Source of the DNA: a virus
DNA length: 14,358 nt
Virus record (IMG/VR): IMGVR_UViG_3300035698_011115
Reading direction: 5' to 3' (one strand)
Both the position numbers and the translations under genes were made by a program. Shown here piece by piece: positions 12,976 through 14,358 of the stretch; position 1 is the stretch's first letter, and each line of letters opens with the position of its first letter. The notes beneath the pieces were generated by a model that saw only the letters and a list, made by a program, of their open reading frames with translations, did no database searches and was not told where the DNA came from.

Positions 12976-14187
12976 ATGAGAACCGAAGAAGAAGCAATTG
13001 AGGAGATGATAGAAATTGGTCACCCAATGTATTTGGCATGTGCTGGTGCACCGTTTGATGTAGCAGAACGCATGTTAAATGTAGCAGGAGTATCTAGAAT
13101 ATTTCTGGGTTGCACTATTCCTTATAATCCTGCTGCATTTGATGATTTTATTGATATGAAAATAGGAAGTGGTTATTGTTCAGACATAGGAGCAGTACGA
13201 CTTGCCTCAGCGTCATATAGAAAGGCAATGAAAATTTGCTTTGATAATAGTAAACCAACCCATAATTGCATTGGTATTGGCGCAACTGCATCAATAGCAA
13301 CCAATAGAGAACGTAGAGGTAAAGATCAATTATTTGTTGCTGTGGCAACGCAAAATACATTGGATATTTATCATTATGAATTGAACAAAAGATTGGGTCG
13401 TGCTCAACAAGCAAGTTTCTGCAATGATGTGTTGATAAGTATCATTTCGGATGTTGTATTTAATCATAATATCAACAAGGTTATTCCTATTTGGTATAGG
13501 TATAAAGAGATGATAGTGGATGCTGAAAATACATCATGGTATGAAAAGTATGGAGCATGGCATCCATCTGGAACATCTTTCTTGCATCCAAGTAATCCAA
13601 ATTCTGAGGTAATGGATGGTTATAACCAACCACATTTGGCTGCTGGAATGTTCATCTTCGTAGATAGAAATGGGAAAAGAGTATGGTGGGATGGTTATAA
13701 TGAAGACCATTCACCAATTATATTCCCAGGATCATTCAATCCACTACATGTAGGTCATATTGAGATGGCTGAGATTGTTGAGAAAGCTACTGGGCGTGAA
13801 GTAGTTTTTGAGATATCTCTAGAGCGTGTGAAAAAGGGAGAAATTAGTATAGCTGCTGCTTTCCATAGAGCTGAAAAACTTTATGGGAGATGGGGCTTTT
13901 TGATTGGTGGAGATAACACTAAGTTCCTTCTGGATAAGGCTACTTCATATGATTGTTCAGATTTCTTAGTAGGAGAAGATACATTATCAAGGTTGATTGA
14001 TGTATCCTACTACGAGAATCCAGGTGATATTAATGGAGTGTTGTCTGCTATGAAAGATCTAGGTTTGAACTTCTTCGTATTCAAACGGAAAGAAGTAAAG
14101 ATTCCAGTAATAAATCTTTCAAGCATGATGCATGTAATAAACGAAGACTTTGATATTAGCTCAACAGAAATGAGAGGACATGTATGA
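12976..14187 (+). CDS. fusion protein: CinA-C/PncC-like domain (N-terminal) + NadD/NMNAT-type nucleotidyltransferase (C-terminal)
   Basis: The C-terminal half carries the HxGH nucleotidyltransferase motif (FPGSFNPLHVGH) and a terminal ISSTEMR (NadD ISSTxIR motif). The N-terminal ~170 aa resemble the CinA C-terminal domain pattern (LACAGAP..., GVSRIFLGCTIPYNPAA, IGIGATASIA). I chose ATG 12976 over the track's TTG 12910. Confidence 0.7.
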   Translation: MRTEEEAIEEMIEIGHPMYLACAGAPFDVAERMLNVAGVSRIFLGCTIPYNPAAFDDFIDMKIGSGYCSDIGAVRLASASYRKAMKICFDNSKPTHNCIGIGATASIATNRERRGKDQLFVAVATQNTLDIYHYELNKRLGRAQQASFCNDVLISIISDVVFNHNINKVIPIWYRYKEMIVDAENTSWYEKYGAWHPSGTSFLHPSNPNSEVMDGYNQPHLAAGMFIFVDRNGKRVWWDGYNEDHSPIIFPGSFNPLHVGHIEMAEIVEKATGREVVFEISLERVKKGEISIAAAFHRAEKLYGRWGFLIGGDNTKFLLDKATSYDCSDFLVGEDTLSRLIDVSYYENPGDINGVLSAMKDLGLNFFVFKRKEVKIPVINLSSMMHVINEDFDISSTEMRGHV

Positions 14188-14358
14188 TTCAAAGAATCGG
14201 AGTGAGTTGTATAATTTTTGATCAAGTGAACAACAGAATAGCAATGACTCACCGTACTGACAAATGTAGGCATTCTCACAATAAGTGGGGCCTGCCTGGT
14301 GGGGCAATGGAACCAGAAGATGATAGCATTGGAGCTGTTGCACGTAGAGAAGTCCAAG
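14184..14358 (+). CDS. Nudix hydrolase, N-terminal fragment (continues beyond the window)
   Basis: The Nudix box GLPGGAMEPEDDSIGAVARREVQ is present. The ATG overlaps the upstream stop (ATGA coupling). Confidence 0.8.
   Translation, partial: MIQRIGVSCIIFDQVNNRIAMTHRTDKCRHSHNKWGLPGGAMEPEDDSIGAVARREVQ

Follow-up and report, generated by a model that had tools for sequence, protein, structure and literature searches.

A CinA-like/NadD-like fusion gene coupled to a Nudix gene in a viral contig: a candidate nicotinamide mononucleotide adenylyltransferase of a NARP2-type NAD+ salvage cassette

Reconstitution of nicotinamide adenine dinucleotide (NAD+) by phages, through the pathways NARP1, NARP2, and NARP3, is a general route around NAD+-depleting immunity (such as Thoeris, DSR, and SIR2-HerA). 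In NARP2, the Nampt and Nmnat of Vibrio phage KVP40 rebuild NAD+ and overcome type I Thoeris and other NAD+-depleting systems (bioRxiv 10.1101/2024.02.11.579819), and NARP3 consists of PnuC and the NadR-like protein Bas30_86 (Sci Adv 2026, PMC13464706). Iyer et al. (2022) describe the NAD+ synthesis enzymes of phages as NadV plus NadM or NadR, with CinA and PncC nowhere in the text, and a jumbophage study of 2026 reports NadM-type NMNAT-Nudix islands. Within the searchable literature, we found no paper on a fusion of a CinA-like domain with an NMNAT in phages. Such a fusion gene, followed by an overlapping Nudix hydrolase gene, occupies positions 12976 to 14358 of the IMG/VR virus record IMGVR_UViG_3300035698_011115, whose 14,358-nucleotide sequence is referred to here as the window; an initial annotation of this segment proved accurate in its coordinates and description.

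We propose, with a probability of about 0.6, that the fusion gene supplies the nicotinamide mononucleotide (NMN) adenylyltransferase step of a NARP2-type phage NAD+ salvage cassette, in which the CinA-like domain binds without deamidating. The cassette would work like NARP2 and would be built from a different transferase and a catalytically disabled extra domain; what is new would be its architecture and its inactive CinA-like partner rather than the logic of the pathway. With the KVP40 system (NadV/Nampt plus NatV/Nmnat; Lee et al. 2017, Osterman et al. 2024), the cassette shares the combination of NAMPT and NMNAT with Nudix activity and an occurrence in large phages, and NMNAT, Nudix, and NAMPT genes are adjacent in the closest relative of the window. 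KVP40 NatV, however, has a NadM-type transferase with a C-terminally fused Nudix ADP-ribose pyrophosphatase, whereas the fusion transferase is NadD-like and the Nudix of the window is encoded by a separate, overlapping gene. The suggestion in the initial annotation of a NatV-like pair therefore fails in the family sense. NARP3 is likewise a phage pathway that ends in an NMN adenylyltransferase, as proposed for the window cassette, but its enzyme is of the NadR type.

The fusion open reading frame (ORF) encodes 403 residues (Table 1), and a program-made list has it begin earlier, at TTG 12910. Translation likely starts at ATG 12976 instead: the alignment with the ortholog from the closest relative begins at the same methionine, and a purine-rich AAAGAGGA lies just upstream. 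Among the 22 relatives retrieved by a protein search, 11 match over the full length, at 25 to 28% identity, and full-length homologs with E values down to 1.8e-33 mark the ORF as a real gene rather than a chance reading frame. The linker between its two domains is gapped in most homologs. In an AlphaFold2 model built from 12 sequences, the mean confidence (pLDDT) was 71.6, with values mostly of 75 to 92 in the N-terminal domain and below 50 in linker residues 173 to 224; when the model was compared with solved structures by Foldseek, the top matches were CinA structures and NadD.

The C-terminal domain carries both the HxGH and the ISSTxxR motifs of the NadD/NMNAT clade in a Rossmann-like fold, and Pfam CTP_transf_like covers residues 249 to 400 (E = 1.1e-7). 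Searches against NCBIfam gave partial, subthreshold matches of this domain to NadD and phosphopantetheine adenylyltransferase (PPAT) models and no match of the fusion protein to the NadM series. When a profile of 66 C-terminal domain sequences (A4) was searched against Protein Data Bank (PDB) structures, NadD structures ranked first (1kam, 1.1e-8; 8aih, 3.7e-8; 2h29, 2.8e-7), followed by human NMNAT1 (4.3e-7) and PPAT (∼3e-5), with no NadM or NadR structure at an E value of <0.01. Bacterial NadD and eukaryotic NMNAT1 to -3, which have the HxGH, GxD(T/S), and ISSTxxR motifs in common with the fusion transferase, are thus its best matches by profile and fold; the fusion protein differs from them in its additional N-terminal domain and in bit scores far under the equivalog cutoffs. 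Profile and fold comparison therefore place the transferase in the NadD/eukaryotic NMNAT branch, not in the NadM branch of KVP40 NatV. The NadD/NMNAT-type adenylyltransferase that had been read from the motifs alone is upheld by these comparisons, including the nucleotidyltransferase fold on which that reading depended.

The N-terminal domain was more elusive. A single-sequence search with the window domain found no CinA match in Pfam (E ≤ 1), NCBIfam, or PHROGs, and phmmer against the PDB returned weak PPAT matches only, so that profiles and fold comparison were needed. The Pfam CinA model (PF02464) matches the N-terminal domains of 10 of 11 homologs individually (best E value, 7e-7), and family profiles match the CinA proteins of Thermus thermophilus and A. 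tumefaciens with E values of 2.7e-6 and 1.3e-3, respectively (6e-5 and 4e-4 in a second run). The domain has the fold of the C-terminal domain of CinA, that of the PncC/CinA NMN deamidases. The resemblance to CinA-C/PncC noted initially holds at the level of profile and fold, and profile searches, the test on which it could have failed, support it.

In A. tumefaciens CinA (AtCinA), the catalytic dyad consists of S31 and K63, the NMN phosphate is bound by G46/S48, Y58, and R145, and the S31A, K63A, Y58A, and R145A mutants are each without detectable activity (PMC5384747). The hidden Markov model (HMM) alignment to structure 2a9s, whose chain numbering runs 2 ahead of that in the paper, is free of gaps from the ESCTGG block to the YTNDAK block and places A23 and F55 of the window protein at the two dyad positions. 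Across an alignment of 81 viral and bacterial family members (A3), from which all residue counts were taken, the K63-equivalent column contains Leu (37 members), Met (16), Thr (15), and Phe (8), and Lys in none of the 81; the S31-equivalent column contains Thr (41), Ala (22), and Ser (15). The phosphate-binding columns, by contrast with the dyad, are kept: G38 in all 81 members, S40 in 78, and Y50 in 80. R142 is invariant (81/81) and, from this invariance and its position rather than from residue-level alignment, is taken as the equivalent of AtCinA R145.

The domain thus differs from the PncC/CinA deamidases (Escherichia coli YgaD, A. tumefaciens 2A9S, and T. thermophilus CinA 4CT8), which have the Ser/Lys dyad and a GPxGG-type loop; the window domain has neither, and in the fusion family a basic RxRRG loop stands in place of the latter. 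Nor does the window sequence itself match Pfam CinA. In these respects it resembles YfaY and YdeJ, known inactive CinA paralogs of E. coli (PMC3855486); the CinA phylogeny in that paper left aside CinA domains fused to other domains. Judged from sequence, the CinA-like domain is probably a nondeamidating nucleotide-binding module, which most likely binds a ribonucleotide 5'-phosphate, most simply NMN. The suggestion in the initial annotation that this domain binds its ligand rather than deamidating it fits the missing dyad.

The closest relative of the window was recovered through an exact 61-mer from the Nudix start as JGI contig Ga0307992_1000731 (L037), with which the window shares mosaic synteny. 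The contig of the window itself was not recovered: an exact look-up of the protein, scans of viral contigs with an exact 61-mer and with single-protein and two-sequence patterns, and megablast of the whole window against phages gave no match, and the metagenome scan yielded this relative rather than the source. L037 ends 96 nucleotides past its Nudix gene, and the 28-residue start of the next gene matches the N-terminal DSYK region of our NAMPT HMM; the score of 6.9 bits, at the correct position in NAMPT and above those of 500 of 500 shuffled sequences, is suggestive only. A second assembly of the same relative, ENA ERZ27316756 (L118; 20,286 bp), extends further. There, the fusion gene (413 residues) is followed by the Nudix gene (157 residues) with an ATGA overlap, directly after which come a NAMPT gene (540 residues), a 65-residue ORF, and a second Nudix gene (186 residues) of the NadM/NrtR type; further on are genes for a hypoxanthine-guanine phosphoribosyltransferase (HGPRT)-like protein, a T4 Rnl1-type RNA ligase, and an HNH protein. 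The NAMPT identification rests on matches to Xanthomonas NAMPT (7yqo, 5.8e-38), mammalian NAMPT (∼1e-30), and NCBIfam PRK09198 (3.5e-68), and the second Nudix resembles the NadM Nudix domain (3.5e-17) and the NAD regulator NrtR (3.4e-20).

NARP1 (Adps plus Namat) was considered as a model for this cassette and rejected: the phosphoribosyltransferase-family protein of the relative is closest to NAMPT structures. No Prs-like ADP-ribose pyrophosphokinase (Adps) was present among the called genes of L118, whose only other phosphoribosyltransferase gene is the HGPRT-like one, and the cassette is therefore NARP2-like rather than NARP1-like.

The association with NAMPT extends to the viral family as a whole. 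The module is carried by at least 36 viral contigs: IMG/VR furnished 36 viral loci, among them phage contigs of 448 to 513 kb and, in four cases, contigs that binning had assigned to giant viruses. Matches in deposited phage genomes were confined to two uncultured huge phages. With our own HMMs for both fusion domains and for the neighboring NAMPT cluster, run on viral and bacterial loci, the CinA-like and NMNAT parts were found together in every viral locus; 24 of the 36 have them fused, and the other 12 encode them as separate genes that adjoin or overlap. That the same pair occurs both fused and split argues for a joint function of the two parts. The most common conserved viral neighbor is a protein of ∼480 residues with Pfam NAPRTase and NAMPT_N domains, and NAMPT lies within 10 kb in 22/36 viral loci versus 1/80 bacterial loci; at about 7 of these viral loci, the module adjoins Nudix genes, some of them NadM-, NudC-, NudE-, or NrtR-like. 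Together with the gene order of the relative, this frequency bears out the NAD-salvage setting that had been proposed for the window. The four contigs binned as giant viruses (GVMAG-named contigs L010, L020, L023, and L028) carry the fusion, with NAMPT alongside in L010 and L023; NAD salvage was reported as absent from eukaryotic viruses in a survey of 2022 (PMC9503650).

The fusion is no phage peculiarity: the window protein is a member of a widespread bacterial family, of which a genome collection yielded at least 543 loci in bacterial species genomes. The best 80 of these, on which all analyses of bacterial loci were performed, come from SAR86, SAR202/Dehalococcoidia/Chloroflexota, Planctomycetota, Gemmatimonadota, Bdellovibrionota, and others, and 79 of the 80 are fused. 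The bacterial proteins have the same two-domain architecture at 24 to 30% identity over their full length, but the bacterial copies stand among ordinary metabolic genes without NAMPT (with one exception), in contrast to the NAMPT-linked and sometimes split viral copies. There was no conserved NAD-related neighbor in the best 80 loci, only lineage-specific synteny, with NADH dehydrogenase subunits, isocitrate/isopropylmalate dehydrogenase, glucokinase, and photolyase-related proteins among the neighbors. In several Dehalococcoidia/SAR202 loci (L040, L044, L050, L057, and others), genes for NADH:quinone oxidoreductase chain 3 and the 20-kDa subunit follow immediately downstream of the fusion gene, a link that may be coincidental synteny. 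The sole NAMPT-linked locus among the best 80 (L038; CAZJXY010000029.1, 15.8 kb) belongs to a Bdellovibrionales metagenome-assembled genome (MAG) and is also the best genome-collection match to the window protein among the matches listed (30% identity, 3e-41). As the only "bacterial" locus with NAMPT in this set, it may represent a phage contig that was assigned to a MAG during binning.

The Nudix gene begins within the end of the fusion gene, its ATG (14184 to 14186) overlapping the fusion stop by 4 nucleotides (ATGA), as in the relative. The window ends within the Nudix box (...ARREVQ), and the 58 residues present match Pfam NUDIX (E = 1.9e-8). The overlapping Nudix gene of the initial annotation, described there as translationally coupled, stands. 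The complete ortholog, with 56/58 residues identical to the window fragment, is a generic Nudix protein with the RExxEE core; NudI and MutT match it best, in every case far below cutoffs, and NadM-type models reach an E value of only 1.7e-4. Its context suggests a role as an ADP-ribose or dinucleotide pyrophosphatase; no subfamily is assignable from its sequence.

In the pathway that we propose, nicotinamide would be converted to NMN by NAMPT, and the fusion protein would then combine NMN and ATP to give NAD+ and pyrophosphate, with catalysis in the C-terminal domain at the HxGH and ISSTxxR motifs. The CinA-like domain would be an obligate partner of the transferase, binding NMN or a related ribonucleotide without deamidation, and may capture or hand over the substrate, support dimerization, or act allosterically. 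The overlapping Nudix, presumably cotranslated, would probably hydrolyze ADP-ribose or another dinucleotide, and its product might return ribose-5-phosphate to phosphoribosyl pyrophosphate or its activity serve to buffer NAD+. By analogy with NARP2, such a cassette would be expected to benefit the virus against NAD+-depleting defense.

Several observations weigh against this reading. The fusion family is uncharacterized enzymatically, and the transferase scores only 23.9 bits with the NadD model TIGR00482 (cutoff, 112.45), other NadD models also being far below their cutoffs, so that the substrate could be NMN, NaMN (nicotinic acid mononucleotide), or something else. Thr or Ser is kept at the nucleophile (S31) position in 56/81 members, and an alternative catalytic arrangement is possible given the basic RxRRG loop and a conserved lysine, K138 (71/81 members). 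The window protein also departs from its own family at the conserved N-terminal domain positions P26, G45, D117, and Q118, and its AlphaFold2 model has an unreliable interdomain arrangement (pTM, 0.56). As for the coupled Nudix, its resemblance to MutT/NudI is as great as that to any ADP-ribose pyrophosphatase. Finally, the NadV/NAMPT gene for which the initial annotation advised a search was found in L118 and is absent among the 20 ORFs scanned in the window, which ends inside the Nudix gene. We infer that the genome of the window continues with NAMPT downstream, as does L118; the fusion gene is, however, far more diverged from the relative than its flanks are, and the downstream gene content could therefore differ.

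The identity of the reaction could also be read in another way. A true bifunctional enzyme would deamidate NMN to NaMN and adenylate this to nicotinic acid adenine dinucleotide, which host NadE would complete to NAD+; JGI in fact names two homologs "NaMN adenylyltransferase / NMN deamidase PncC." The proximity of the transferase to NaMN-preferring NadD enzymes is consistent with this, and the Thr or Ser at the S31 position of most members could act with K138 as a base, yet the K63-equivalent lysine is missing throughout the family, the window has noncatalytic residues at both dyad positions, and AtCinA tolerates the loss of neither S31 nor K63 (PMC5384747). Such an enzyme would, moreover, be odd beside NAMPT, because two ATP-consuming, host-dependent steps would be added. 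We regard a bifunctional enzyme as improbable, and the JGI label is probably wrong for these proteins and a fold-level annotation only. More improbable still is that the transferase uses a nonpyridine substrate (phosphopantetheine, a sugar or ribosyl phosphate, or an ADP-ribose derivative), which would make the NAD link coincidental. Only the generic Pfam CTP_transf_like model scored above threshold, no NCBIfam equivalog cutoff was reached, and PPAT structures were matched; these structures nevertheless ranked after those of NadD and NMNAT1 in the profile search.

With the same biochemistry, the cassette might instead, as a set of auxiliary metabolic genes, provide general metabolic support, raising NAD+ for the replication of a large phage in nutrient-poor hosts rather than countering defense. 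NARP2 raises NAD+ even without a defense system (bioRxiv 10.1101/2024.02.11.579819), the bacterial members of the family are chromosomal genes without NAD-specific neighbors, and self-sufficiency genes stand nearby (six tRNAs, an RF-1-domain protein, and a dCMP deaminase in the window; HGPRT and RNA ligase in the relative). Against this reading, NARP2 genes have been shown to overcome NAD+-depleting systems, and we consider support alone rather unlikely; the two roles are mutually compatible, and the sequence does not discriminate between them.

Table 1. Positions in the window of the fusion gene, its domains and key residues, and the coupled Nudix gene
Feature	Position	Strand	Basis or remark
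CinA-like/NadD-like adenylyltransferase fusion gene, 403 residues	12976..14187, including stop (TGA 14185-14187)	+	ORF, full-length homologs, ortholog alignment
N-terminal CinA/PncC-fold domain, residues ∼1-165	12976..13470	+	
Interdomain linker, poorly conserved, residues ∼166-245	13471..13710	+	Longer than in most relatives
C-terminal NadD/NMNAT-clade nucleotidyltransferase domain, residues ∼246-403	13711..14184	+	
C22 (AtCinA E30)			HMM alignment to 2a9s
A23 (AtCinA S31)	13042-13044		HMM alignment to 2a9s
G24 (AtCinA C32)			HMM alignment to 2a9s
G38 (AtCinA G46)	13087-13095 (G38/S40)		
S40 (AtCinA S48)	13087-13095 (G38/S40)		HMM alignment to 2a9s
Y50 (AtCinA Y58)	13123-13125		
F55 (AtCinA K63)	13138-13140		
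R142	13399-13401		Invariant Arg of the N-terminal domain
HxGH motif, H258-V-G-H261	13747-13758		Read directly in the sequence
ISSTEMR motif, residues 394-400	14155-14175		Read directly in the sequence
Shine-Dalgarno-like GAGAGGA	14172..14178	+	Inside the fusion gene end, 6 nt upstream of the Nudix start
Nudix hydrolase gene, 5' part, 58 codons	14184..14358	+	Pfam NUDIX; truncated within the Nudix box, where the window ends

The comparison with the relative also revealed a sharp change in divergence across the cassette. The fusion proteins are 43% identical, and their genes reach at most 68% nucleotide identity, in part of their length, whereas the flanks are 80 to 91% identical and the DNA of the Nudix start is 91% identical; either recombination or a strongly accelerated evolution of the fusion gene is indicated. 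A 46-residue ORF just upstream of it (12825-12965, +) resembles, by eye, the N terminus of an intact 233-residue Cys-rich protein of L037 (2132-2833, −), and the 145-residue gene that follows the Cys-rich gene in L037 has no counterpart in the window, which suggests a deletion ahead of the fusion gene.

Elsewhere, the window carries (1788-6178, +) an 862-residue protein with a Major Vault Protein shoulder (PF11978, 1e-29), a Vault_3 repeat, and a weak Band_7 match, followed by a 126-residue protein with weak Pfam matches only and a 466-residue SPFH/Band_7 protein. Phage matches to the vault-like protein are confined to uncultured huge phages of 462 to 735 kb (41% identity), and the block is apparently absent from the syntenic place in L037/L118. 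Six tRNA genes (Ser-GGA, Met, Ser-GCT, Cys, Gly-TCC, and Trp) are scattered over positions 1157 to 12583, and other genes encode an RF-1-domain protein (11671-12030), a cREC_REC receiver (11111-11491), a plain receiver (1262-1618), an HD_4 protein (8661-9074), and the dCMP deaminase. With the Rnl1-type RNA ligase of the relative, the tRNAs, the RF-1-domain protein, and their like look like a translation and RNA-repair toolkit.

Surveys aimed at NadM-type or NadR-type transferases would miss the CinA-like/NadD-like module. No member of the family has been characterized, and the disabled CinA domain is never found apart from the transferase; what this domain does is therefore a tractable biochemical question. 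We tentatively postulate, at somewhat less than even odds, that the CinA-like pseudodeamidase is an NMN-capturing or regulatory partner and that, with its NadD-like transferase, it constitutes a third, hitherto unrecognized class of viral NMN adenylyltransferase beside NadM and NadR. A bolder version of this proposal would have the CinA-like domain bind NAD- or ADP-ribose-derived immune signals or products instead of NMN. If the third class is real, the NAMPT cassettes of huge phages and of contigs binned as giant viruses would have it as their NMNAT, and abundant marine bacteria such as SAR86 and SAR202 would encode it on their chromosomes.

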